A stretch of 46,458 bases of DNA from Escherichia phage Phagiculus: the sequence record OR896821.1; one strand, written 5' to 3'. Positions 4,526-39,272 of the stretch are shown piece after piece; positions within the stretch are counted from its first letter, which is position 1, and each line of letters starts with the position of its first letter. The notes under the pieces were generated by a model. That model was not told the origin of the DNA. It made no database searches and saw only the letters and a list, made by a program, of their open reading frames with translations. Made by a program: the position numbers and the translations under genes.

Positions 4526-4552
4526 ACAAAAAAGACCCCTAAGGGTCTTTGC
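4526..4552 (-). terminator. intrinsic terminator after major tail protein gene
   Basis: minus strand AGACCC-TTAG-GGGTCT followed by TTTTTT. Confidence 0.6.
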
Positions 4553-4564
4553 AAAAAGTGCTAT

Positions 4565-5215
4565 TTATGCTGCCAGGAAGCTGTAGCGTCCTCGTACCGT
4601 AATTGCTACGGATACAGTTTCGATTTCGTTAACAGAAACGTTTGGCGTTTCGTTGAATGCGATAGTGCCAGTCCACAAGCGAACTTCACCAGCCTTAGGT
4701 ACGTATGCGCGAATCGCCAGAAGTGCACCAGTCTCATCGTAGTTGCGAAGGATTGGGTAAATCGGGTTGGTGAAGTCGTGCGCAAAGGTGTAAGTGGTGT
4801 TAACAGCTGACTTATAAGTCGGAATCTGCTGCTCACGGTCATCTGCCAGACACTGATAGGTAACAAACTGCTGTTCACCGCCGTCAGTAGAAACATCCTG
4901 AATACAAGGCATTTCATACCAGCTAAGAATCTTGTAGATTACCGCGGTGCCGCCAGCAGGGAACTGCATAACGTCGCTAGTGTCGATACCTTCGACGGTA
5001 ATAGTTGTTGCAGTGGTGCTAACTACTCGCAGTTGCTTCTCGGAAAGCTTAGACCAGCTTGAGGATTCAACAACGATAAAGTCACCACTTGCAAAATCAG
5101 AAGCGTCAGCAACCGTCATTACTGGTTGGGCTGCGTTGCTTACTGCGGTTACCTGAACTGATTCTCCAGCTGAACCCTGGATAAAGATTTGAGTACCGTT
5201 ACTCAAGTGTGCCAT
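4565..5215 (-). CDS. major tail (tube) protein
   Basis: position between neck/tail-completion genes and chaperones; AAGGAG RBS before ATG at 5215; flanked downstream by strong terminator. Confidence 0.55.
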   Translation of the reverse strand: MAHLSNGTQIFIQGSAGESVQVTAVSNAAQPVMTVADASDFASGDFIVVESSSWSKLSEKQLRVVSTTATTITVEGIDTSDVMQFPAGGTAVIYKILSWYEMPCIQDVSTDGGEQQFVTYQCLADDREQQIPTYKSAVNTTYTFAHDFTNPIYPILRNYDETGALLAIRAYVPKAGEVRLWTGTIAFNETPNVSVNEIETVSVAITVRGRYSFLAA

Positions 5216-17089: not shown

Positions 17090-17132
17090 ATAGTACCGCA
17101 TCCTTGCGATTGATGTTTAGCAATTCGTGCTA
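17090..17132 (-). promoter_or_regulatory. conserved promoter module (IR TAGCAC-N3-TTGCTA plus -10-like)
   Basis: plus-strand tagcaattcgtgcta at 17118..17132; minus-strand TACTAT 22 nt downstream; leader ATTGAAACGA. Confidence 0.55.
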
Positions 17133-17450
17133 TTTGCTCCAGTTATCCAGGTAATAACTATTGCTTACTACATGCTGAATCTTAGAGTAATCTCGATACT
17201 TATCAATAATCTCCTGAACGTGAGCGCCTCGCTGCTCATGGAACTCTACAGCCTTCTGAAGCGATACAATGGCCTCATTAATGTCAGTAGTATAATCCTT
17301 GTGTCGAGTGCGAATGCCGCTGCACAGAACCTTCTTTATGGCGTGCTGCAGTGCCGGGTCTGTTACTCCAAATGCTGCGATTACTCGATATACATCCACG
17401 GTAGTCTTGGTGCCATCAAGACCAATAATTTCTTTGTTGTACTTACTCAT
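17130..17450 (-). CDS. hypothetical protein (106 aa)
   Basis: ORF in early block. Confidence 0.55.
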   Translation of the reverse strand: MSKYNKEIIGLDGTKTTVDVYRVIAAFGVTDPALQHAIKKVLCSGIRTRHKDYTTDINEAIVSLQKAVEFHEQRGAHVQEIIDKYRDYSKIQHVVSNSYYLDNWSK

Positions 17451-18021: not shown

Positions 18022-18064
18022 ATTATATGTAATGCCATCCGTGGCGTCTTAGCAATTCGTGCTA
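18022..18064 (-). promoter_or_regulatory. conserved promoter module
   Basis: tagcaattcgtgcta at 18050..18064; minus-strand TATAAT at 18027..18022. Confidence 0.55.
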
Positions 18065-18078
18065 TTTCCCAATCAGGA

Positions 18079-18576
18079 TTAATTCATCTCCTTAATCATA
18101 TCCTGGTACATCCGGATAGCTTTGATAGCGCCAGATAACTCATCACCTTCCATATCAACGATATTAGGGCTTAACTTCAGGATTCGCTCCTTAAAACTCT
18201 CAATTGCCTTTATCTCAATGTGCTCGTTAGTCTTGTTACGAACCCCTTCTTTAATTGCTCCTTTAATGAGGGTGATCTTCGCACAGTACTCAACCTCATC
18301 TTTGAACTCCATGTCACCAAAAGAAAGTCTAGCTCTGTAATCGGCGTCCTTCATTGACTCCATTCTGCTGGCAGTGTTTGCAACATAGGATGCTTTTAGC
18401 TTGGTAATCTCATAACGACCGCCTCGCTTGAAGTCAACATCAGAAGAGTCGAAGTCAACCTCTCCACCAAGCAGCTGATAAATCTTCTTGACCGGTACAT
18501 GGAACTCTTTGGCCTCAGACTTGAGTGCCTCATCAACCATACCTCGCACTACATCACCCAAAGTTGTATTGCTCAT
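18079..18576 (-). CDS. hypothetical protein (165 aa)
   Basis: first gene of the early minus-strand block. Confidence 0.55.
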   Translation of the reverse strand: MSNTTLGDVVRGMVDEALKSEAKEFHVPVKKIYQLLGGEVDFDSSDVDFKRGGRYEITKLKASYVANTASRMESMKDADYRARLSFGDMEFKDEVEYCAKITLIKGAIKEGVRNKTNEHIEIKAIESFKERILKLSPNIVDMEGDELSGAIKAIRMYQDMIKEMN

Positions 18577-19014
18577 GTCTTTCCCCTCTCGTTAAGTTAC
18601 ATCCATAATATAGCGGACTTATATACGTGTCAATAGCTGTGAAAAAAAATAGACATTGCATGTTTTTACGCTTTAGCCCATGAGAGCCCCGCCACTGCTG
18701 ACTGTGAATCGCTGTGCACAATGTAGATAGAATCCCGCCGGACCCCCTATATATATCTATATCCTTTCGGAGATATGAATATACATCATTGAGAGGAAAC
18801 ATATGGGTATCACCATTATGGCTATCTACACTATTTACATAACAATATTATAATAATAATAATAACTCTAAGTTGTTTATATATATAGATATTTTATTGT
18901 AACTAGCTGTAAATTTACGCGGATTGCGTAGATAAATTCCCGCGCGCGCATTTTTGTCTATAGCTTTAACTTCGTTTACGCGTATCGCATATAGATGAAG
19001 AAATTTAGCCGCAA

Positions 19015-19170: not shown

Positions 19171-19178
19171 CTAACGAA

Positions 19179-19222
19179 TAGCACTTTTTGCTAAAGACGA
19201 AACCACCATGATTGGGTATAGT
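19179..19222 (+). promoter_or_regulatory. conserved promoter module
   Basis: tagcactttttgcta then aagacg then TATAGT at 19217..19222; leader CCATCGAAACGAA. Confidence 0.6.
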
Positions 19223-19260
19223 TACTCCATCGAAACGAACCAAACACAGGAATCTGAATC

Positions 19261-19675: not shown

Positions 19676-19676
19676 A

Positions 19677-19719
19677 TAGCACTTTTTGTTAAAACAGGCA
19701 TTAAGAAAACGAGTATAGT
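19677..19719 (+). promoter_or_regulatory. conserved promoter module
   Basis: tagcactttttgtta, aaacag, TATAGT at 19714..19719. Confidence 0.55.
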
Positions 19720-20542: not shown

Positions 20543-20766
20543 TTCATGAACTAAAGATATTACCAGTACATTTTGATCCGGTAGATACTGGCCTTAAGCT
20601 GGCAGAGCTAAGAAAAAATGACAGAAATTTTTCTGTTGGTGATAAGTTGATACTCAAAGAGTTCCACGATGGTGCTTATACCGGAAGGATTACAATAAAA
20701 GAGGTATTACATATAGCTGATGTTTCCGAATATCTTCCAGGGTATGTTTTACTCTCAATGTATTAA
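20539..20766 (+). CDS. ASCH/DUF3850-like small protein
   Basis: MIHELKILPVHFDPV...LRKNDRNFSVGD pattern typical of the DUF3850 family. Confidence 0.45.
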   Translation: MIHELKILPVHFDPVDTGLKLAELRKNDRNFSVGDKLILKEFHDGAYTGRITIKEVLHIADVSEYLPGYVLLSMY

Positions 20767-20810
20767 TAGCACTTTTTGCTAATGACATTACCCGCCTCGG
20801 CGGGTATATT
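20767..20810 (+). promoter_or_regulatory. conserved promoter module
   Basis: tagcactttttgcta, -35-like ATGACA, TATATT; hairpin CCGCCTCGGCGG in spacer. Confidence 0.55.
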
Positions 20811-20842
20811 TATATCCATCGACAACGAAATAGAGAAATAAG

Positions 20843-25020: not shown

Positions 25021-25063
25021 ATAATATCAGGTTTTTACTTTGTGTCTTTAGCAATTCGTGCTT
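25021..25063 (-). promoter_or_regulatory. conserved promoter module
   Basis: tagcaattcgtgctt (one mismatch); minus-strand TATTAT at 25026..25021; leader ATCGAAAACGAGAGAGG. Confidence 0.5.
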
Positions 25064-25205
25064 TTTCTAATGCTTCTTGAACTTCTTCAAAACTAGCAAT
25101 CAGCAAGCAAGCCATTACATTCTCATCAAATACTCGCCAACCTTTCCCGCTATATGCCGCTATGGTGTCGTGGTCGAAATAATTAATCTCGCTAGGTTTT
25201 AACAT
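25035..25205 (-). CDS. hypothetical protein (56 aa)
   Basis: internal ATG at 25205 adjacent to upstream stop. Confidence 0.4.
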   Translation of the reverse strand: MLKPSEINYFDHDTIAAYSGKGWRVFDENVMACLLIASFEEVQEALEKARIAKDTK

Positions 25206-25463: not shown

Positions 25464-25507
25464 AATATAGCGCCTTTCGGCGCTATAGTCTTTAGCAAAA
25501 AGTGCTA
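25464..25507 (-). promoter_or_regulatory. conserved promoter module with hairpin in spacer
   Basis: tagcaaaaagtgcta at 25493..25507; ATAGCGCC-TTTC-GGCGCTAT hairpin; TATATT. Confidence 0.5.
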
Positions 25508-26644
25508 CTTAGTGAACATTTTAGGACGGCAGATGAATCGACCAACCTCGCCAAACTCTTTATGATAAATAATTACCGCAGCCTGACGCTGTGAACGCCA
25601 GCCTCCATTTGCACTGTATGCGTCAGGAGAGCCAAGCTGACCGTGAACCTCGTCAATACCCAAGTTAGTCTCTGTAATCTTCTGTGAGTGCCAGTGCCCT
25701 GAGTGGGTGTAAACATAATCACTAACACCAAAATCACGTCGCCAATCAGTAGCCATAACAGTCAATCGCGTTTCGGCTTTCCGCATCTGGTGGCCGTGAG
25801 TGTATCCAATCAAAGTAGAGCCAAACTTAGTAACCATCATAGCCGCGGGGCTTACGTCAACCGTGACTCGAGGCTCATCCTCATAGAATGCAGCAAGAGC
25901 GGCGCGAAGCCAAACCATACCAGATTCGTCGTGGTTGCCAGAAATTGTTTTAATATCAATAGTTTGGTGCTTCTCAAGCATCTTACGAATAGCTCGACGA
26001 ACAGACCTAATACAAACATAAACAATCTTAGCATAACGGCTGTCGCTGTCTAAAATATGACCGCTTGCAGGTGTCTTAGCCTCAAGTGAATCATAGTGAA
26101 TCAAGTCACCACCAAGTACAAGTACGGCATTCTTTGAGTTCGGCGCTTCATTTACAGCATAATCAAAGAAGTCATTCATTACCTTTTCTGCGGTTGCCGT
26201 GTCGTAGTTTTCACCACACTCATGCTTGTGAGCCATAGCGCCAATATGAAGGTCAAATACAGGGTACATAGCCAAAGTGTTTTCATCAAAAACTTTACCC
26301 TTAACTTCAACTGGTTCTTCTTTAGGTAACTCGGAGCAGAAAGCCTCTCGAGCTTGCTCCATCAACTGCTCAAGTCGCTCATTGTCAACGCTAGTCTTGA
26401 CCCACCGAATCTTCTCATTTCCTTCTGCGTCAATCATGGTTGATGTTCCCTTCACCATGTAACCATCTGGAACAAGCTTCTTAATGCCAGGATTTCCATG
26501 CAACTCACCAGCCTTAGCCAGCTTACTACGACGCAATTCAACATTGCGAATATTCATACCGTACTTCTCTGCGATTGCCTTGTTAGTCATTCCGTTCGCC
26601 AGTTCTTCACGAAGCTGTTCGTTGCTGATTTTTGCAGTTGCCAT
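25505..26644 (-). CDS. metallophosphoesterase (Mre11/SbcD-like) with N-terminal HTH
   Basis: FDLHIG, GGDLIH, GNHDE, GHWH motifs; N-terminal GMTNKAIAEKYGMNIRNVELRRSKL. Confidence 0.7.
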   Translation of the reverse strand: MATAKISNEQLREELANGMTNKAIAEKYGMNIRNVELRRSKLAKAGELHGNPGIKKLVPDGYMVKGTSTMIDAEGNEKIRWVKTSVDNERLEQLMEQAREAFCSELPKEEPVEVKGKVFDENTLAMYPVFDLHIGAMAHKHECGENYDTATAEKVMNDFFDYAVNEAPNSKNAVLVLGGDLIHYDSLEAKTPASGHILDSDSRYAKIVYVCIRSVRRAIRKMLEKHQTIDIKTISGNHDESGMVWLRAALAAFYEDEPRVTVDVSPAAMMVTKFGSTLIGYTHGHQMRKAETRLTVMATDWRRDFGVSDYVYTHSGHWHSQKITETNLGIDEVHGQLGSPDAYSANGGWRSQRQAAVIIYHKEFGEVGRFICRPKMFTK

Positions 26645-27996: not shown

Positions 27997-28032
27997 TTTG
28001 TTTCTCTCTCTGCGTTTCGTTTCGATGAAGTG

Positions 28033-28075
28033 ATAATACATCACTTCTCCGATTCGTCTTTAGCAATTAGTGCTA
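28033..28075 (-). promoter_or_regulatory. conserved promoter module
   Basis: tagcaattagtgcta at 28061..28075; aagacg; minus-strand TATTAT at 28038..28033; leader CATCGAAACGAAACG. Confidence 0.6.
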
Positions 28076-28450
28076 TTTTGATAAGTAATCCTCAATCGCC
28101 AGCTTAAACATTTCAAAACCGTAACAGATAGCTGCGTAACCTCCTGTTTCTGATACCTTTTCTAGGAAATCCTTTTGCTCCTTTGAAACCTTGCTATCTG
28201 ATTTTATTGCGCGCTTAAGTTCGATTGCCGCGAATCCATTTGGTCCAATCAGCAAGATATCTGAAACTCCCTTGATTACACCTTCCTGCTTATCCTTGAC
28301 GGCAGTTCCAATTGACTTCAGGCCTTCATTCTTGACGTGAAAGGCAAATATCTCAGGGTGGTTATGACGCACCCAAGCAATCGAATTAACCTGGTGAACA
28401 ACCTCTTTAGCTTTATCCGTGCTTGTCTTGTCGTGAAATACTTTAATCAT
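28073..28450 (-). CDS. VRR-NUC domain nuclease
   Basis: GVSDILLIGPNGFAAIELK D...E.K pattern; AAGGAG RBS before ATG at 28450. Confidence 0.5.
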   Translation of the reverse strand: MIKVFHDKTSTDKAKEVVHQVNSIAWVRHNHPEIFAFHVKNEGLKSIGTAVKDKQEGVIKGVSDILLIGPNGFAAIELKRAIKSDSKVSKEQKDFLEKVSETGGYAAICYGFEMFKLAIEDYLSK

Positions 28451-28451
28451 A

Positions 28452-30382
28452 TTAGAACTCCTTATTTGCCATGTTATCGCCACCTTTGGCGGTCTTACGG
28501 TGAGTTACTCGCTTTGGAGCCTGAATGTATTGTGCGAACTCCATAATCTTACGAGCATTGCGATATGCAGCCATGTATCTTTTAGCATTCATATCTACTA
28601 CATGCCCCTTAATTCCATTATTCAACCATAAAGTCTTGCATACTCGATGGTCCGACTCTACAAAGAAAACCTCCTGAGCCTTAAATGTCCCACCCATGCC
28701 GTCATCAAGGACGTAGTTGTAGATGATTCCTGATTGGTTCTTGGTGAGGCCAACTTTGAAATCAACAACATCAAACCAGTCATTTTTTCTATAATGTTTA
28801 CCGCTTAACTTCAGATTTGGGTCAAGCAAAGTGCAATCACAACCCCTGCAAATCTTGGCAGCTACGTCATTCTGAACTCCACAACCTTTAACGGTAATCT
28901 TTCCTGTGCGTGGGTCCTTCTGGTCTTCACAGGTGCGACTAACCCAGAAATATTCACAGCGATTGTTATTCTCATCAACATGCATACAGCGACGAGCATA
29001 AAAGCTATTCTCAGTTCCGCAAACTGGGCACTGCTTGGTTTCCTTGCCATTACTCTTGCGTAGCTGATATTGGGCCTGTTCAAGTATTGGGTTGAAGTAA
29101 AGCGCAGCCATTGAATCCATAGTTCCAGCGAAATCCAAAACAAGGTGGTCATTCTTGACCATTCCTTTATCTTCATGAAACTTTTTGAGTTTACGCATCC
29201 CTCGACCAAGAAGCTGAACAAGAAGTGTAAGGCTACCAATCTTGCGAAGAATAACGCTTGTATCCCATGTTGGTACGTTAACCCCAGTAGTCAGAGCCTG
29301 AACCTGGAAGCAGTATTTTATCTCTCCATTAAAGCACTTATCTAATAACTCTTTACGCTGCTTTTCACCAGTCTTGCCAGTAATAACGCAGAAAGTTTCC
29401 CCTTCTGGCAAGTAGCTAGCCGCTTCATGGCAATGTCTTTCACCAGCACAAGTAACCAGAACTCCGTTACGGTCTTTAGCAGCGAGCCAGACCTTCTTCA
29501 TTATCTCAGCTGTCATTGTTCCGGACTGCTGAATCTTCTTCTCCATTGCCTCAAGCTGAGCCTTTGTATAGTCCTGCACTCCATCATCTGCGGAAGTGTC
29601 GAACTCTGACAGGTCATAACCCATACCATCAGTGGCGCCAAAGTTTGTCGGTACTACGGAGCCGAACTCAACAAGATAATCTGTATCTATATTTGTAACA
29701 GTCTCGCGCCAGAACCCCATCTCCTTTTTGTTCTCAACGACAATTGGAGTGGTTCCACGGAAAGGTGAGCCAGTCAGGCCAAAGATACGCAGGTTCTTGC
29801 CATACTTGGCTCGGCAGCGTTCCATTAAAGTCAGGATGATAACTGTGTACTGGCTGCGACCTTTATCTGATGCCTGTTGCGCAGTTTCGTTGTTATCAAT
29901 TGCCTCTGCGATATCCTGGTCATCAACCATGTGACACTCATCAATAGCAACTACCGCAGGGCAAAAATCACCAAGTGACTTCTCAAGACCTCCAACTACC
30001 GTGCCCTCGGAGCCAACTACAATTGGGAAATAAGAAGACTTAATGCCAAGTCCTGAGCAATAGATAGAGTTAGGTACACCATAGTCAGAAATCTCAGAAG
30101 CATTCTGGCTAACTAACTCAGCCTGACGCGCGAGAACAAGCATTGGCAAGCCAAGTTCGGAGCAGCGCTTAGCGACCATGCCAAAAACAAGCGTCTTACC
30201 TGCGGAAACCGAAGCCATTGCGATGAATGGGTGCTCATAACGACCAATACGTTTTGCAATCTCATTGTACATTACACACTGATAGCTATAAGGAACCATG
30301 CCGTTTGATGAAGTGAATTTAGTTTGAATCTCTTTGATTTTATCTTCGCCAAGTTCTGCAATCTGTTTCTTAATATTAATCA
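28452..30382 (-). CDS. SF2 DEAD/DEAH-type helicase with C-terminal Cys-rich zinc-ribbon region
   Basis: Walker A SVSAGKTLV, Walker B AIDECHMV; CPVCG...C...C cluster; ORF-track start at 30431 is TTG and overlaps the promoter. Confidence 0.8.
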
Positions 30383-30394
30383 TGACCTTGCCAT

Positions 30395-30422
30395 TTGTTT
30401 CGTTTATGTATGGTGCTATAAT
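30395..30422 (+). promoter_or_regulatory. sigma70-like extended -10 promoter for HTH gene
   Basis: TTGTTT - 16 nt - TGcTATAAT on plus strand. Confidence 0.4.
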
Positions 30423-30459
30423 ACACGACAAGCGAAAACACTTTTAGCAAAAAATGCTA
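30418..30459 (-). promoter_or_regulatory. conserved promoter module (divergent with 30395..30422)
   Basis: tagcaaaaaatgcta at 30445..30459; minus-strand TATTAT at 30423..30418. Confidence 0.5.
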
Positions 30460-30469
30460 TCGAGGTTAA

Positions 30470-31016
30470 TATGTCAGAAAAAATTGCATTATCTACTGGT
30501 GAGATTGATAAGAGAACCACCAACGGAAACAACGGAATCTCTCGCAGTGAAGACAAGAAGCCACGCAAGCGCCCCAGTGGTTACTACGTATTAAAGGATG
30601 AGGTTAAGGCTGGTCTTAAGGCTAGGCTTGAGATTATCTTAGGATGCTTTGAATCAAAGGCAGATATGGCCAGGAAGTTGAAAGTGAGCCCTCAAGTGGT
30701 CGATCAGTGGTTTAAGCGTGGTTTTATATCAGTTGATGGCGCTTATAAAATGCATAAGTACATGAAGCGAACAGGGTTGGGTTATCGCGCCTCTTTTTGC
30801 AGACCAGACATCAAGTTCGATTCCAACGGCAAGCCACTACATAAGCGATGCCAGGACCGTAGAATGATGCGGGTAGTTACCGATAAAGAGTTGAAGATGA
30901 AGCCAATGGAAAAGAACTGGCGACAAAAGAAGAAGGAGAAAGCACTGAAGAAAATTCAGGAGAAGGAAGCTAGAGAGCATTGGATAAACGCCTTTTCAGA
31001 TATTGAGCACGAATAG
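30470..31016 (+). CDS. Cro/YdaS-like HTH DNA-binding protein with basic N-terminus and K/E-rich C-terminus
   Basis: KADMARKLKVSPQVVDQWFKRGFIS ... CRPDIKF pattern typical of the YdaS/Cro family. Confidence 0.5.
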
Positions 31017-31076
31017 TCAAAAAATACCACCTAAACGGTGGTATTTTTGTATGCAATGTAGATGAGGAGAGTAGAC

Positions 31077-31988
31077 ATGAACTACGATAAGAATGAAGTT
31101 ATTTCCAGAATGAAGGGGCTTTGGCCTGACGCTCTCGTTAAGCTGTGTGGGGTAAATCCAGCGGTATTCAAGAGCAGAAAGCATCAGCCATGCATCTACT
31201 GTGGAGGAACTGACAGGTTTCGATGGACAGACAAGGTTAATGAGCAGGGTGACGGAGGCGCTATCTGCAACCAGTGCGGCGCTGGTGATGGCATTAAGTG
31301 GATTGAGAAGATGAGGGGTGAGTCTTTTAGCGAGGCCGTAAATACTGTTGGTGAGTGGCTGAATCTCGTCCCTGTTGAAGTCGTTAACAAGGCAAACAAA
31401 TCCGCAAGCAGGGTTCAGCGCTATAAGAATGGCGCTCAATCATCTCCAGAATTAATAGAGAAGGTAATGTCTCGCACCAAGTCGGTAGAAATCACACAGC
31501 TAACGAGATATGAAGCCATTATTGCTGAGCGTGAATACAAAATAGGCATCAATGAGTCTGGAGAGGAAATTATAGCCGAGCAATGCTTTATGGTTTACGA
31601 GGATGGATTTGCTGACGAGCCTTGCAACGTAAAATTTATCAATGAAGAAGGTAATGAGTCATACCTTGCAAAAGATTATACACGCGGTTCGATAGTTCCG
31701 GTCAGTGAATGTAATGAAGGCTCTATCTATCTAACAGTTGGCTGGGTTAATGCAATGCATGTCGCGGAATGTACAGGAAGGACGACATATGACTGCCTAA
31801 CGCATTACAACCTAGAGATGGTTGCGTACGAACTCAGGAATAAAGACTGCCGCATAGCCTGCCTCAGAGATGATAAGGAGTCGCTTTATGTTGCTGACGA
31901 CAGGTGCATTAAAGTTGTTGTTCCAAATGGAAACTCATTCAAGAATGGATTGGAGAGAAAACTATATTCACCACAAGATTTAATCTAA
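31077..31988 (+). CDS. DNA primase (zinc-ribbon N-terminus)
   Basis: CIYCGGTDRFRWTD...CNQCGAGDG zinc-binding motif typical of phage primases. Confidence 0.6.
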   Translation: MNYDKNEVISRMKGLWPDALVKLCGVNPAVFKSRKHQPCIYCGGTDRFRWTDKVNEQGDGGAICNQCGAGDGIKWIEKMRGESFSEAVNTVGEWLNLVPVEVVNKANKSASRVQRYKNGAQSSPELIEKVMSRTKSVEITQLTRYEAIIAEREYKIGINESGEEIIAEQCFMVYEDGFADEPCNVKFINEEGNESYLAKDYTRGSIVPVSECNEGSIYLTVGWVNAMHVAECTGRTTYDCLTHYNLEMVAYELRNKDCRIACLRDDKESLYVADDRCIKVVVPNGNSFKNGLERKLYSPQDLI

Positions 31989-32010
31989 CCCTCTTCGGAG
32001 GGTTTTTTAT
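31986..32010 (+). terminator. intrinsic terminator after primase
   Basis: AACCCTC-TTCG-GAGGGTT followed by TTTTTT. Confidence 0.65.
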
Positions 32011-32060
32011 TGCAACCAATCTGATACAATAGGTTTTATCTATCAAAAAGGAGAAATAAC

Positions 32061-34745
32061 ATGGCAATTTATGACGCTGGCACAGCATCAATGACAGCTA
32101 ATGGCATTGTTACTGGCGTTGGTACTTCATGGCAACAACCTCTAACCCTCATTAGGGTTGGGGCTACAATGGTATTTAAAACAAATCCAGTTACCGCTGT
32201 AACAGTTGCTGAGATTATTAGCGACACAAGTATTCGTGCATTCAATACAAAATCAACTGTAGTTCCGGCTGGCACTCAGTACTTCATTTTGGCTCACGAT
32301 GGAATCACAGTTCAGGGACTGGCTCAAGACGTCGCTGAAACACTGCGTTACTACCAGTCACAAGAAACGAGCGTTGCCTCCTTGGTACAACTTGCGCAGT
32401 CTGGTGATTTTGACTTTGATCGCCTTGAGACTTTGGTTAATGAAGCTAAGTCAAGCGAGACAAACGCAGCATCAAGCGCATCGTCTGCGGCGGCAAGTCA
32501 GCAAGCGGCAGCAACAAGCCAGGCTCAGGCGGAATCAAGTGCCTCAAGTGCTCAGAGTGCATATAACAATACCGTTAATGCTATTGCTAATGCTGGGGAT
32601 GCATCAACCTTGGTTACTCTATCTGGATGGGGCATAGGTTCAAGTAGTGGAATGACACTTTTGGATTCTCTTGATTTTCAGAACTTTACTTTTGTAATCG
32701 GTGCTTACTATAGGGTTGCTTACTCAAATGTAACAAATGCGCCTCCTTCACTTGTCGTACCAACAACTGCAACCCTCGTTATAAATGTAACTAGCGGCGG
32801 AAGCGTAAACAATAGGGTTATGGATGTGGCAACATATACCGCATCTGACAATAACTTTAGGAAGTACAGCCTGTCATACAACGGCGCGCCAGGCTCTAGG
32901 GTTTTTTATGTTAGGGAGTCTATTTATTTGCCTGGTGGATCTGAAGTTGGTGGGGCTAACGCTCAAAGGGTTAGGGGTTTGCTTGATGTTTACTCAAAAG
33001 CTGAGTCTGATGCAGTGAGAACTATCGCGCTTGGTGGAACTGGTGCTACAACCGCTGCCGCTGCAAGGGAAAACCTTGATGTCTTCTCGCGCGATGAATC
33101 AAGACCCCAGCTTAAATCTTCATCATACCCAAATCTTCTTGATGCGATTACTGATGCAGTATCAAAGGGATATGATTTGTTGATTGACAGGGCAGAGAAT
33201 ATTACCCAGCCAATAAGACTGTCACTATCTGGAAGGGATTTCTCAATAAAAAGCACATCCGACGGTTGGATTAATTTTACACCATCTAATCCTAACACCT
33301 ATTATCAGGTTCTTACTTTTGACGGAACAGGTGTCGAGAGATTGATTACAGAAGTAAAAATTGATGGAGGAAAAGTTCGCGGTGTAGGTCGTGCAATATT
33401 GGGTATAGCGTCAAACTATGTGGCTTACCATAAAGAATCATCTGAAATGAGGAATATATCTGCTGGCGTTAACTGCACTGGCGCTAAGTTGCATGAGTGT
33501 GTTGGTGCTTATTATTATAATGTATTCCAGCAGCTTGCAAGTCAGGACTGGAGTGCTGGTGTTTATGGTTATGGCTGTGTTCCTATCGACTGCAAAACGG
33601 TAGTTATCTCTGGGTGCACGTTTGGTATTGAATCCATGCCTCTTGATCGACACGCAGTTTATTCTAGTTCAAGAGATGACGGAACGGGATACAATGATTT
33701 TGTTTTCGTTTCAAAAAACAACTGTTACATGCGTGATTATTCGTCAGAGACTGCGGAGACAACGTTTGAAAGGTGCTTTAAGTTCATTGGAACTAAAAAT
33801 GTTGTTGTTGATTCTAATGTTGTTATTGGTGGTTATGGCGGTGTCTTAATAACCTGCCGCAAGGACGATAGGGTTAACTATGTTGGTGTATCAAATAATA
33901 GCTTTAGAGTCTTCTCTTCTGGAGTTGAAGTTTCATACCAGGACGCAGCAGCTCAGAACCAATCAACAGCAACATGGTCAGTTGGAACTTTAAAAGTTAA
34001 CGACAACAGGTTTGATTTGACGACAAATGCGTCTGGTATATCGAATGGGATTGCGTGGAGGAATGTTGATAAAGTTTATGATTTCAATAATTACTACACT
34101 CAGCTTTCTTACCCATCCAGCACTGGTTTGACTGTCTTTTACCCGCGGTCTGATAGGATTAGGTCTTCACTCTTCATTTCCAAGGGTAGTCACTATTCAG
34201 GATTCAATAACATAACAAGGGAAATGGCGCCAACAGTAACTAGTATTGAATTAACCTGCCAGAACGCTGTTAGTTCACAGACTCCACTTAACGCGACAGG
34301 AGCAAATAACCAGTATGCTTTCGTAAGGTCTATAGATGGAAGTGCATCGTGGAGGACCTACACTGGGTCTTCAATACCTGGCTTTAGGTATTTTGACTCA
34401 ACATTAAATAAGGTTATATATAATACCGGAACTGGAACTTGGAATGATGAGAGTGGCTTTTTAAGTGTTGGCACGCTAGCATCAAGACCGGATGGTGTAC
34501 CTGTTAACTTTAGGTATTGGGAGGTGGATCAATCAAGGTATGTTGTCTGGACTGGCTCTACCTGGGTTTTATCAACAAAGTCATTCTCTCCAACACCTTT
34601 AGCTGCAACAACTGCTCAGATAAAAGCCATAGATAAAACAATACTTGGCTACGGGCATGTTGTTTATGATACTACAGCTAAAAAGCCAGCGTTCTTTGAC
34701 CAGCTTGCTCAGGCATGGAGGTATGCAGACGGAACGGCGATATAA
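32061..34745 (+). CDS. tail fibre protein
   Basis: 894 aa, Ser/Ala/Gln-rich fibrous segment, Gly/Ser/Thr/Asn-rich C-terminal region. Confidence 0.6.
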   Translation: MAIYDAGTASMTANGIVTGVGTSWQQPLTLIRVGATMVFKTNPVTAVTVAEIISDTSIRAFNTKSTVVPAGTQYFILAHDGITVQGLAQDVAETLRYYQSQETSVASLVQLAQSGDFDFDRLETLVNEAKSSETNAASSASSAAASQQAAATSQAQAESSASSAQSAYNNTVNAIANAGDASTLVTLSGWGIGSSSGMTLLDSLDFQNFTFVIGAYYRVAYSNVTNAPPSLVVPTTATLVINVTSGGSVNNRVMDVATYTASDNNFRKYSLSYNGAPGSRVFYVRESIYLPGGSEVGGANAQRVRGLLDVYSKAESDAVRTIALGGTGATTAAAARENLDVFSRDESRPQLKSSSYPNLLDAITDAVSKGYDLLIDRAENITQPIRLSLSGRDFSIKSTSDGWINFTPSNPNTYYQVLTFDGTGVERLITEVKIDGGKVRGVGRAILGIASNYVAYHKESSEMRNISAGVNCTGAKLHECVGAYYYNVFQQLASQDWSAGVYGYGCVPIDCKTVVISGCTFGIESMPLDRHAVYSSSRDDGTGYNDFVFVSKNNCYMRDYSSETAETTFERCFKFIGTKNVVVDSNVVIGGYGGVLITCRKDDRVNYVGVSNNSFRVFSSGVEVSYQDAAAQNQSTATWSVGTLKVNDNRFDLTTNASGISNGIAWRNVDKVYDFNNYYTQLSYPSSTGLTVFYPRSDRIRSSLFISKGSHYSGFNNITREMAPTVTSIELTCQNAVSSQTPLNATGANNQYAFVRSIDGSASWRTYTGSSIPGFRYFDSTLNKVIYNTGTGTWNDESGFLSVGTLASRPDGVPVNFRYWEVDQSRYVVWTGSTWVLSTKSFSPTPLAATTAQIKAIDKTILGYGHVVYDTTAKKPAFFDQLAQAWRYADGTAI

Positions 34746-35921: not shown

Positions 35922-35964
35922 ACTATACACCATCGATTTAATCCTGTTTTAGCTATTCGTGCTA
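35922..35964 (-). promoter_or_regulatory. conserved promoter module
   Basis: tagctattcgtgcta (one mismatch); minus-strand TATAGT at 35927..35922; leader CCTAATCGACAAAAAAGAGAGA. Confidence 0.5.
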
Positions 35965-35966
35965 TA

Positions 35967-37951: not shown

Positions 37952-38602
37952 TTAGTTCAGTTTCAAAATCTCGCTATTTTTATCAACCAGCTTATTAATT
38001 AACTCATCCTTATCAGCCAGCTTATGGCAAAGAGTCTCACACTGAGCCTGATATGAGTAAACCAACTCTTGCGAGTCAAAGTATCTACCTGATTCAAACT
38101 TCAATTCGTACATCTTTTTGTCAACCTCCTCGCCATCTGAAGCCTTGTCGATGTACTTATAGATAATCTTCTCAAGTTTATAAACTTCATCCTCAGCGCG
38201 GTTTCTAGCAGCAATCTCTTTCGTAGTCTGCATCTTCTCCTTTAGAACCAGGTCGTAAGAAACCATCTTAGCTACATGCTCTTTCAGTAACTTGTTTTCC
38301 CGCTCAAGCTGCTTAATCTTTTTAATCATGTTCATTCGCGCTTTCGCGCTGTACTTCGCAACAAGGCATAACGCGTGGTCCTTGTCGAGTAAAGCTACCT
38401 TGTGAGTCTGTCCTTTGTTGTTATATTCACGGTCCCGAAATTCGGGAGCGTGATTCTCTCCATAAAGATCAATGTACATTTCTTTTGCTGCATTAAAGAC
38501 ATGCTCATGCCTTTGACCAACAACTCCAGCAATATCAAAGGTGGTCATTGTAATTTCTTCATCAGTATTCATTAAGTTCATTGTTTGCTCTCTTATTGTC
38601 AC
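37952..38602 (-). CDS. Rha-like phage regulatory protein with coiled-coil C-terminus
   Basis: TTFDIAGVVGQRHEHVF ... KVALLDKDHALCLVAKYSAKAR pattern typical of the Rha family. Confidence 0.45.
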   Translation of the reverse strand: MTIREQTMNLMNTDEEITMTTFDIAGVVGQRHEHVFNAAKEMYIDLYGENHAPEFRDREYNNKGQTHKVALLDKDHALCLVAKYSAKARMNMIKKIKQLERENKLLKEHVAKMVSYDLVLKEKMQTTKEIAARNRAEDEVYKLEKIIYKYIDKASDGEEVDKKMYELKFESGRYFDSQELVYSYQAQCETLCHKLADKDELINKLVDKNSEILKLN

Positions 38603-38651: not shown

Positions 38652-38693
38652 ATATACCCGTTCAGAAGCATCCTGTTTTGACTAATCGTGCTA
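38652..38693 (-). promoter_or_regulatory. degenerate conserved promoter module
   Basis: tgactaatcgtgcta (half-site degenerate); aaacag; GTATAT; leader contains hairpin CTGCTCA-AATC-TGAGCAG. Confidence 0.35.
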
Positions 38694-38869
38694 TTTTGTA
38701 TACCAGCGTAAAACTATCCAATTTACAGATTCCCCCACCTGCAACACCGCCATCACTTGATGTAACCGATGTATATAGAGTAAACAAGAAAAAATCACCC
38801 ACATCTATATCTATAGATAAATGCAGGTATGTATATGCTCGTAAAAATGAAGATTATACGCCCATCGCC

Positions 38870-39272
38870 TCATGAGCCCGCACCAACACTGGATGTAACT
38901 CATGTAAACGCTGTAACAGTAGTTTTTGCGCCCCTATCTATATATCCATATGCATTTGGCAACACCAGAAACAGAACTTAGTCATTTCAAAAAAACATAT
39001 CAACACAACCATAGAAGGTAGTTACACTATATACAAACAAATATAGTAATAATAATAATTACTCTAAACCCTTATTATATAAGGATTCTTTAGTGTAACT
39101 AATGCGTATCTGCGCGTAAAAAGCGTATACAATTTCCCGCGGGTCAGGATTGCATACATCGATTTACATAGGTTACGCGTATATCAAATAGCACGATTTG
39201 CTAAAGACTGACTGAAGCACCTTTGGTATAGTTACTCCATCGAAACGAAAAACACTTAATAAGGATTCAAAA
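38870..39272. repeat. AT-rich control region B, paralogous to 18670..19260
   Basis: same ordered sequence blocks as region A, ending in conserved promoter module. Confidence 0.6.
39189..39232 (+). promoter_or_regulatory. conserved promoter module
   Basis: tagcacgatttgcta, aagact, TATAGT at 39227..39232; leader TACTCCATCGAAACGAA identical to the one at 19222..19250. Confidence 0.6.

Follow-up and report, generated by a model that had tools for sequence, protein, structure and literature searches.

Introduction

The genome of Escherichia phage Phagiculus (sequence record OR896821.1; the whole stretch of 46,458 nucleotides is called the window in the following) contains a repeated 20-bp element, one copy of which lies between a helicase gene and a divergent gene for a Cro/YdaS-like helix-turn-helix (HTH) protein. 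The closest described systems belong to the bacterial host. For the sites of the activators MarA, SoxS, Rob, and RamA, the marboxes, the consensus AYNGCACNNWNNRYYAAAYN has been printed (PMC2527123, PMC2064960). A form derived from chromatin immunoprecipitation (ChIP) reads gcannwwntgnnaaa, and sites in forward orientation with a centre between -36 and -55 are designated class II (PMC12052159). The class II site of micF is located at about -41, and activation by the MarA/SoxS/Rob family is typically 2–4-fold (PMC8811837). At the bidirectional Escherichia coli promoter PacrA/acrR, marbox-bound SoxS activates acrAB and represses the divergent acrR purely by RNA polymerase competition, and the DNA-bound SoxS does not impede elongation (PMC12825309). 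In bacterial bidirectional promoters the divergent starts most often lie 18 bp apart (PMC12825309).

On the phage side, the re-annotation of phage TLS (Kropinski et al. 2024, PMC11447400) described a 21-nt direct repeat, aaATAGCACnnnTTGnTAAAA, which is present in 21 copies oriented with transcription, lies about 76 nt 5' of start codons, and occurs also in T1, Rtp, and Rogue1. Just three sigma-70 promoters were detectable in the TLS genome. Stoperator, enhancer, and UP-element ideas were offered by the authors for the repeat, and the gene lying between those for primase and helicase was not discussed as a regulator (PMC11447400).

The window can be assigned to the T1-like Drexlerviridae by its megablast matches and by a gene order as in T1 and Rogue1. 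Thirty-six phage records match positions 28000–32100, all of them T1-like siphoviruses of the Rogue1/AHP24/JK06 group with about 83% identity, and the order tail fibre, primase, terminator, 'transcriptional regulator', divergent helicase, and VRR-NUC gene is identical in T1 and Rogue1. The repeat and the annotation 'transcriptional regulator' are already known from literature and databases. In the searchable literature neither a T1-like transcriptome nor a link between marboxes and phages was found, and the same holds for the repeat as a class II marbox and for the locus as a bidirectional promoter of the acrA/acrR kind. The two mechanisms as such are familiar; the setting is new.

The repeated element resembles a class II marbox

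With up to one mismatch allowed, TAGCA-N5-TGCTA occurs 12 times in the window as compared to 2.04 ± 1.58 times in shuffled sequences, none of 100 shuffles reaching 12. The count agrees with the original prediction for this locus, which had spoken of a regulon of 12 palindromic sites. When oriented to the downstream gene, the 12 sites align as (a)ATAGCAC-nnW-TTGCTAAAg(ac), and all of them are followed by TAnnnT 21–23 nt past the palindrome, then by about 6 nt, a conserved leader CATCGAAACGA, a ribosome binding site (RBS), and ATG. The minus-strand module which had been assigned to the helicase gene is one of these and is real. At the HTH locus the module is thus directed at the helicase and not at the HTH gene. 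The consensus of the element, ATAGCAYnnWTTGYTAAA, is asymmetric and directional, the palindrome being its pseudo-symmetric core at positions 2–16.

A family logo was built from 263 unique sites of all genomes gathered, which had been collected with a position weight matrix (PWM) seeded from the Phagiculus window. Positions 1–3 are A (.97), Y (T.78, C.21), and A (.95), followed by G, C, and A (1.0 each) and C (.90) at positions 4–7, by n, W, W, T (.98), and T (.81) at positions 8–12, and by G (.98), Y (C.63, T.34), T (.93), and three A at positions 13–18. The asymmetry is seen in G4, which is found in 100% of the sites as compared to C in 63% at the mirror position 14, in C7, which faces a noncomplementary T11, and in A17 and A18, which are conserved without mirror partners. 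In addition, two members at 38675 and 31004 fit the marbox and do not fit the palindrome. Alignment of upstream regions on -10 and leader blurred the motif through the variable gap, and expectation maximization (EM) and the PWM were used instead. An unseeded EM motif search recovered AATAGCACnnnTTGCTAAAA from five lineages, among them the window and T1; its convergence was poor for the small sets of Rtp, TLS, Webervirus, and Rogue1. Viral contigs were also scanned for exact copies of ATAGCACNNNTTGCTAAA, a search aimed at carriers which are not T1-like, and among the matches listed every contig with several hits had the size of a T1-like genome, and the single hits were at chance level.

The logo fits the host consensus at 13 of its 14 specified positions and is degenerate at the consensus's own degenerate sites (Y2, W10, Y14). 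The chance of such a fit is about 7e-6 per random 20-mer, uncorrected for register and for how many known motifs might have been compared. Perfect matches to the 15-mer gcannwwntgnnaaa number eight in the window (1.1 expected, shuffle maximum 4), 20 in T1 (0.7 expected), and 13 in Rogue1 (1.1 expected); all 12 palindromes deviate from it by at most one mismatch, and the copy at 30441–30460 matches it perfectly. The gap between marbox and -10 amounts to 17–19 bp with a mode of 18 (258 modules), which places the centre at -39.5 to -41.5 from the presumed +1. All modules are in forward orientation, and with these starts both the orientation and the position are those of class II sites. From sequence comparison it can be inferred that the 20-bp phage repeat corresponds to a consensus class II marbox, the site of the host activators MarA, SoxS, and Rob (and, in Klebsiella and Salmonella, RamA), which are monomeric and have two HTHs. 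At least 13 promoters in Phagiculus share one architecture, in which the 20-bp element is followed by a spacer of 17–19 bp and TAnnnT and a usable -35 is lacking. The phage shows no excess of canonical sigma-70 promoters (39 as compared to 44.6 expected).

Several other identities of the element were tried and rejected. For a sigma-54 promoter (TGGCAC-N5-TTGCA) the GG is absent and the spacing wrong, and TTGCTA as a true -35 would be located 22–23 nt from the -10, with no -10 found at 17 nt. A T4 MotA-type promoter differs in size and position of the element, and the scan of 46 nonstructural open reading frames (ORFs) showed neither a MotA nor an AsiA domain. A stoperator of the mycobacteriophage L5 type, an asymmetric repressor site which blocks elongation within transcribed DNA of a temperate phage, does not agree with sites fixed 17–19 bp 5' of -10 hexamers in a virulent phage of T1 type with no repressor or integrase domain detected, and an UP element, an A/T-rich site at -40 to -60 for the C-terminal domain of the alpha subunit with no invariant G or C, does not agree with G4, C5, A6, and G13, which are invariant or nearly so.

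More generally, the repeat might work with no host activator at all, either as an intrinsic element (UP-like, or contacted by the C-terminal domain of the alpha subunit (alpha-CTD) or by sigma) or as the site of an unrecognised small phage protein, its likeness to the marbox then being convergent. Such a view can draw on the enhancer, UP-element, and stoperator ideas of the TLS paper (PMC11447400), on the strong -10 hexamers, on the many small phage ORFs with no known fold, and on the searchable literature, in which no host-factor phenotype is reported. UP elements, however, are A/T-rich with no invariant GCAC, and stoperators need a repressor and sit in transcribed DNA, whereas the modules sit 5' of -10 hexamers in a virulent phage. 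A 13/14 match with the same degeneracies, orientation, and spacing would be very unlikely to arise by convergence, and the Pfam and PHROG scan of the 46 ORFs found no AraC-, MarA-, or MotA-like protein. An activator-free element or a site of an unrecognised phage protein is therefore held to be improbable.

A probable bidirectional promoter between the helicase and HTH genes

The intergenic region had been placed at 30383..30469; the spacer exists, its true coordinates being 30384..30470, since the helicase ATG is at 30383. The plus-strand sequence TTGTTT-16-TGcTATAAT proposed as HTH promoter is present as described, with 16 nt between TTGTTT and the extended -10 containing TG. It was also correctly seen that the two divergent promoters overlap and that the palindrome is located inside the 5' untranslated region (5'UTR) of the HTH gene. 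Transcription would start at about 30429 on the plus strand (some 7 nt after the -10) and at about 30411 on the minus strand, 18 bp apart, as estimated from the -10 hexamers. Counted from the former start the palindrome lies at about +17 to +31 of the rightward transcript and not at +23 to +37 as had been claimed. In relatives TTGTTT is weakly conserved and there partly coincides with the helicase Shine-Dalgarno sequence or leader; in the window it is supplied by the reverse complement of the leader. The plus-strand promoter is not listed in a generic sigma-70 scan because its -35 matches at only three of six positions. An RNA hairpin in the HTH 5'UTR was rejected (minimum free energy -7 kcal/mol, z -0.39 as compared to shuffles).

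Eighty-five sequences were compared, among them 80 loci taken from viral contigs, the genomes of T1 and Rogue1, and L203 and L204. The latter two are the contigs with the most divergent full-length homologues of the HTH protein, P0083 and P0081, and were obtained by exact-sequence look-up (Logan SRR10605995, SRR10605996). A marbox-type element in helicase orientation is found 5' of the HTH gene in all 85, and all 85 have a TANNNTA heptamer 17–20 nt from the element (TATAATA in 67, TATCATA in 10, TACAATA in 7, and TATACTA in one). The HTH start codon follows 10–13 nt past the element in 83 of the 85 loci; the remaining spacer sequence is not conserved. The heptamer, TATAATA at 30417–30423 in the window, is a symmetric -10 shared between divergent genes. 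Its trailing A, which makes the -10 two-faced, is present in 85/85 sequences at the HTH locus as compared to 8% (21/258) of the other modules of the family, so that the rightward promoter appears to be specifically maintained beyond chance. The palindrome lies in the HTH 5'UTR because both promoters share this one bidirectional -10.

These features suggest how the locus might work. Leftward, a host activator of the Rob family bound to 30441–30460 would recruit sigma-70 RNA polymerase to the helicase operon, and likewise to the other module-driven units; such recruitment is proposed because the element is a consensus marbox in forward orientation with a centre at about -40 (class II). Rightward, the activator-independent extended -10 (TGcTATAAT) would transcribe the monocistronic HTH gene through the marbox. 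Strong marbox-dependent firing of the helicase promoter would lower HTH transcription, as SoxS does at PacrA/acrR, because the two polymerase binding modes would exclude each other. The helicase could in this way be favoured over the HTH gene with no HTH protein binding at 30441–30460. For the region 30384–30470 this combination of a host activator with a bidirectional promoter is considered probable, if with restrained confidence.

A number of points weigh against it. The domain scan took 46 ORFs, and small proteins with a novel fold would escape it. The PWM behind the family site set was seeded from the window itself, the start sites are deduced from -10 hexamers, and binding of Rob, MarA, or SoxS from sequence alone. 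For a phage that is virulent and fast, dependence on stress-induced activators would be biologically odd. Unstressed cells contain little MarA and SoxS, and Rob is abundant but reportedly largely inactive unless inducers are present. Good -10 elements might give enough basal activity with no activator, and the typical activation by this family is merely 2–4-fold (PMC8811837). The searchable literature yielded no phenotype of T1-like phages connected with rob, marA, or soxS. Finally, A3, T11, and T12 of the logo are conserved beyond the requirement of the marbox consensus, which leaves room for a second reader of the site, encoded by the phage.

The Cro-like protein and its relation to the element

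The HTH protein is homologous to T1 gp23, TLS gp57, and Rogue1 gp48, and homologues were found in 824 phage records by tblastn. Its ORF encodes 181 amino acids, one less than the 182 previously given. It matches PHROG 2856 'transcriptional regulator' with an E value of 1.7e-69. With the Pfam families YdaS and P22_Cro (PF15943, PF14549) it scores 14.3 and 12.3 bits as compared to gathering cut-offs of 30 and 30.2; many of its homologues carry precomputed hits to these families. A profile search in 1.84 billion representative proteins yielded about 20 full-length clusters and beyond them just generic HTH domains of about 80 amino acids. A structural model calculated with AlphaFold2 from 24 homologues had a predicted local distance difference test score (pLDDT) of 84.5, and in Foldseek residues ~43–101 matched Xfaso-1 Cro (3BD1) with a target-normalised template modeling (TM) score of 0.74, N15 Cro (2HIN) with 0.67, and HigA-operator complexes. 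A PDB profile search gave P22 Cro (1RZS) with an E value of 0.019. The modelled protein has an all-alpha DNA-binding fold of the Cro/cI type, and in this respect the profile and structure searches bear out what had been expected of it.

The protein is composed of a basic N-terminal arm, the motif GYYVLKDEV, the HTH at residues ~63–83, a C-terminal motif GFRASFCRPDLxFDxNGK, and a lineage-specific C-terminal helix. The arm (DKRTxNGNNGxxRGxDKKPRKRP; residues 1–36, 30471–30580) is predicted to be disordered with a pLDDT below 60, yet no other part of the protein family is as well conserved, the most divergent members included. Since it is most conserved though predicted to be disordered, a partner-binding arm or a DNA minor-groove arm is suggested. 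Among the 46 ORFs and in the T1 and Rogue1 annotations, the HTH protein is the sole regulator-like phage protein which is conserved family-wide; the only other regulator-type domain among the 46 ORFs is Rha/anti-repressor.

Helix 3 of the protein is clade-specific, reading VSPQVVDQW, VTRQAVEEW, VTPKTVFGW, ISRGVVVEW, and others, and is unrelated to these in L203 and L204 (FKRHRVARW and TNPLEYREM). Nevertheless, the same element stands at the equivalent position in L203 and L204 and also before other genes, for example ATAGCACTTTTTGCTAAAGA and ATAGCACGAATAGCTAAATG. Invariant columns of the protein fall within the N-terminal arm and the C-terminal motif; the positions of helix 3 that contact bases are not among them. 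The HTH protein and the site do not covary, which fits a site read by something other than the HTH protein. In the T1-like L203/L204 lineage the HTH homologue has an extra N-terminal segment, NGEPYKTKWYKP, with the same synteny and the same marbox modules; searches of viral and metagenome contigs for the divergent protein subgroup gave no matches.

The original prediction had regarded the HTH protein as an autoregulator and as the prime candidate regulator of the 12 sites. In this reading a Cro-like dimer would bind TAGCA-N5-TGCTA, repress its own transcript, and, as a master regulator, activate or repress all modules from about -42. The Cro-type fold speaks for it, as do the standing of the protein as the sole family-wide regulator candidate, the half-sites 10 bp apart, which suit a dimer, the activator-independent promoter, by which the HTH protein could be made first, and the conservation of A3, T11, and T12 past marbox needs. 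A phage-encoded factor would also be biologically sensible for a virulent phage. Gene and site occur together in 85/85 genomes and loci, which is uninformative because every T1-like phage has both. Against these points, the site is asymmetric and directional (G4 and C14, C7 and T11, the unpaired A17 and A18) and has non-palindromic members, and the base-contacting positions of helix 3 vary freely beside an invariant site, the change being complete in L203 and L204. A Cro-family regulator would act as a dimer on a symmetric operator with a matching recognition helix; here the candidate operator is asymmetric and helix 3 varies. The match to a host-factor consensus including its degeneracies would be left as an unexplained coincidence. 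Adjacency, the sole tie between the HTH protein and the site, is explained by the geometry of the helicase promoter, and the palindrome beside the HTH gene does not by itself point to autoregulation, as this copy would be the activator site of the helicase promoter and any divergent gene there would have one. The claim of a palindrome-reading master regulator is consequently left unsupported, and the Cro-dimer reading is unlikely to be correct. Autoregulation by the HTH protein is not needed to account for the arrangement and may take place all the same.

A dual reading would have Rob, MarA, and SoxS start phage transcription and the HTH protein compete for the site later, as a temporal switch which shuts down or re-tunes the modules. 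The site does satisfy the marbox consensus and has near-perfect dyad symmetry, A3, T11, and T12 show extra conservation, the A/T-rich centre of the site, which is invariant, could be read by the equally invariant N-terminal arm (NGNNG, KKPRKRP), and the HTH gene forms a unit of its own between two marbox promoters. The unconserved helix 3 counts here too, however, no precedent was found, and the scheme is more complex than the data require, so that it appears to be very unlikely.

For the protein, as distinct from the element, a function in the replication module may also be considered, as an origin-binding or a helicase- or primase-associated factor with a recognition helix coevolving with clade-specific origins. 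Variable helix 3 sequences are typical of initiator-origin pairs such as those of lambdoid O proteins. The gene is always located between those for primase and helicase, protein partners are suggested by the conserved motifs at both termini, and T1-like phages have no identified initiator (TLS paper, PMC11447400). On the other hand, the search for iterons or a second operator in or near the HTH gene found only chance-level short repeats and the terminator, the Pfam, PHROG, PDB profile, and Foldseek searches gave no homology to known initiators, and the assignment is one of guilt by position alone. A replication factor is thus rather unlikely.

Taken together, the 20-bp element is probably not the target of the HTH protein. 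Activation by host factors, which is thought probable, is ranked above the Cro dimer, which is not; what remains of the credence goes to the dual reader, the activator-free element, and an unknown phage factor. For the HTH protein a clade-specific operator, the replication module, and contacts through the invariant N-terminal arm are the candidate roles.

Neighbouring features and other modules

The features of the locus and the further modules of the window are collected in Table 1.

Table 1. Positions of the helicase/HTH locus, its neighbours, and the marbox-type promoter modules in the window
Feature	Position	Strand	Remarks
Helicase/HTH spacer, 87 bp, putative bidirectional promoter	30384..30470		Conserved over 85 loci: only -10 heptamer and 20-bp element
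TTGTTT, -35-like, rightward (HTH) promoter	30395..30400	+	3/6 match; overlaps reverse complement of helicase leader
TGc + TATAATA	30414..30423	both	TG at 30414–15; HTH extended -10 TATAAT at 30417–22
Helicase -10 TATTAT	30418–23	-	Reverse complement of these positions; bases common with HTH -10
Marbox-type 20-bp element ATAGCATTTTTTGCTAAAAG	30441..30460	- (helicase orientation)	Centre about -39.5 of helicase promoter
Exact palindrome TAGCAAAAAATGCTA	30445–30459		Core of 20-bp element
Shine-Dalgarno GAGG of HTH gene	30462..30465	+	Directly after marbox
HTH gene, Cro/YdaS-like protein of 181 amino acids	30471..31016	+	ORF; ATG at 30471
SF2 helicase gene	28452..30383	-	ATG at 30383; putatively transcribed from marbox promoter
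VRR-NUC gene, next after helicase	28073–28483	-	Putatively in unit of marbox promoter
Degenerate marbox-like element TGAGCACGAATAGTCAAAAA, 18-nt spacer, TATTTT	31004..31047	+	Overlaps HTH stop codon
Bidirectional terminator hairpin, 12-bp arms	31020..31048		Ends monocistronic HTH unit; dG -15.4
DNA primase gene	31077..31988	+	
Marbox-type promoter module, tail genes	4545..4564	-	
Marbox-type promoter module	17114..17133	-	0 mismatches to 20-nt consensus
Marbox-type promoter module	18046..18065	-	
Marbox-type promoter module	19178..19197	+	
Marbox-type promoter module	19676..19695	+	
Marbox-type promoter module, DUF3987 helicase operon	20766..20785	+	
Marbox-type promoter module	25045..25064	-	
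Marbox-type promoter module	25489..25508	-	
Marbox-type promoter module	28057..28076	-	
Marbox-type promoter module, Erf/SSB genes	35946..35965	-	
Marbox-type promoter module	39188..39207	+	
Non-palindromic marbox-type module ATAGCACGATTAGTCAAAAC, 18 nt, then TATATT	38675..38694	-	5' of Rha/anti-repressor-like gene
Terminator-in-spacer module	4545–4590	-	
Terminator-in-spacer module	20766–20815	+	
Terminator-in-spacer module	25465–25508	-	
Terminator-in-spacer module	31004–31050	+	

The element at 31004..31047 is the probable promoter of the primase gene. A marbox with 0–2 mismatches together with a -10 is found at this primase-side position in 50 of 66 distinct lineages, and because of this recurrence the HTH gene can be regarded as monocistronic and bracketed by two marbox promoters. 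The T1 annotation has a terminator at the matching place 3' of the HTH gene homologue.

At four modules of the window and in L203, strong rho-independent terminator hairpins (dG -11 to -15 kcal/mol) lie between marbox and -10, the T-run of the hairpin merging into the -10 to give compact terminator-promoter junctions. The conserved leader lies about 6 nt 3' of the -10 in most modules (e.g., 19228–19238 and 39238–39248), at the predicted 5' end of the transcript. The module at 18046–18100 (minus strand) also has a TATAATA heptamer and could be bidirectional; no divergent gene is evident there. The Rha/anti-repressor-like gene (37952–38602) has no equivalent in the T1 annotation. Over the 20 kb scanned, the closest fit to a canonical sigma-70 promoter is TTGACA-17-TATTAT at 18605–18633 (minus strand, 11/12), which has no marbox and is a candidate for an activator-independent early promoter.

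Hosts named in the records of homologues are Escherichia, Shigella, Salmonella, Klebsiella, Citrobacter, Enterobacter, and Cronobacter, enterobacterial genera in which the presence of MarA, SoxS, Rob, or RamA is established (PMC12052159, PMC10268841). Some labels look questionable. P0002, the closest homologue (92% identity, contig of 47,117 bp), is filed as 'MAG: Bacteroidales bacterium', and a T1-like HTH protein is also found in 20 'Campylobacter' phage records and in one 'Vibrio phage Vc1', where the host labels look doubtful as well. Phages truly infecting hosts outside Enterobacterales would put the idea of a host factor to the test.

Implications

T1-like phages rank with the commonest phages of coliform hosts and Klebsiella, and their use in therapy is widely advocated; hardly any sigma-70 promoters are detected in them by annotation. 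They might wire most of their transcription to host MarA, SoxS, Rob, or RamA by means of 13–22 near-consensus class II marboxes per genome. Phage expression, including the choice between helicase and regulator, would then be set by the stress, bile, or antibiotic state of the host, with the Cro-like protein as a partner or antagonist and not as the master regulator. This wider proposal is a real possibility and is held more tentatively than the model of the single locus.

If the repeat is a marbox, the long-standing gap concerning T1 promoters would get a concrete and testable answer, and phage productivity would be tied to the regulon driving multidrug efflux by AcrAB-TolC. Salicylate, bile, paraquat, antibiotics, and the marR, soxR, or ramR mutations often seen in clinical isolates would be predicted to boost these phages, which would be of relevance to phage-antibiotic synergy. 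The annotation 'transcriptional regulator' in more than 800 phage records would need re-examination. At this locus the palindrome beside the HTH gene was a misleading cue.

Comparison with known systems

T4 middle promoters likewise have a good -10 and an upstream box containing TGCT in place of the -35. Their MotA box, however, has 9 bp with its centre at -30 and needs MotA and AsiA, whereas the phage element has 20 bp with its centre at about -40. With Cro, YdaS, and P22-Cro proteins the HTH protein shares the fold of residues ~43–101 and the signature V-S-x-Q-x-V-x-x-W-x-x-R-G-x-I-S. In contrast to the Cro proteins it is 2–3 times larger, has a basic N-terminal arm, an FCRPD motif, and, in Phagiculus, a C-terminal helix of 30 residues, and scores below the Pfam gathering cut-offs; the phage which encodes it is virulent and lacks a lysogeny switch. 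The 21-nt repeat of TLS is the same element as the Phagiculus modules; the TLS paper draws no link to the marbox, to class II geometry, or to gp57.

PacrA/acrR resembles the locus in its symmetric -10 shared by divergent genes, in the marbox activator for one direction, and in the gene for an HTH regulator on the opposite side. The product of acrR, however, is a TetR repressor which has an operator of its own there; no second operator was found in or near the phage HTH gene. The phage marbox, for its part, is class II and lies inside the 5'UTR of the divergent gene, and the phage starts are those predicted from the -10 hexamers.

The class II marbox promoters of micF, fumC, lpxC P2, and lpxL P1 have an asymmetric 20-bp marbox in forward orientation over the -35, with a centre at about -40, a poor -35, and a good -10, and in all this the phage modules are alike. 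Unlike these host promoters, the phage sites are known from sequence alone, stand in a virulent genome in 13–22 copies per 46–49 kb, and often have a terminator hairpin in the spacer. They are far nearer to the consensus than most host marboxes and differ from these also by the extra conservation of A3, T11, and T12 and by a conserved transcribed leader.

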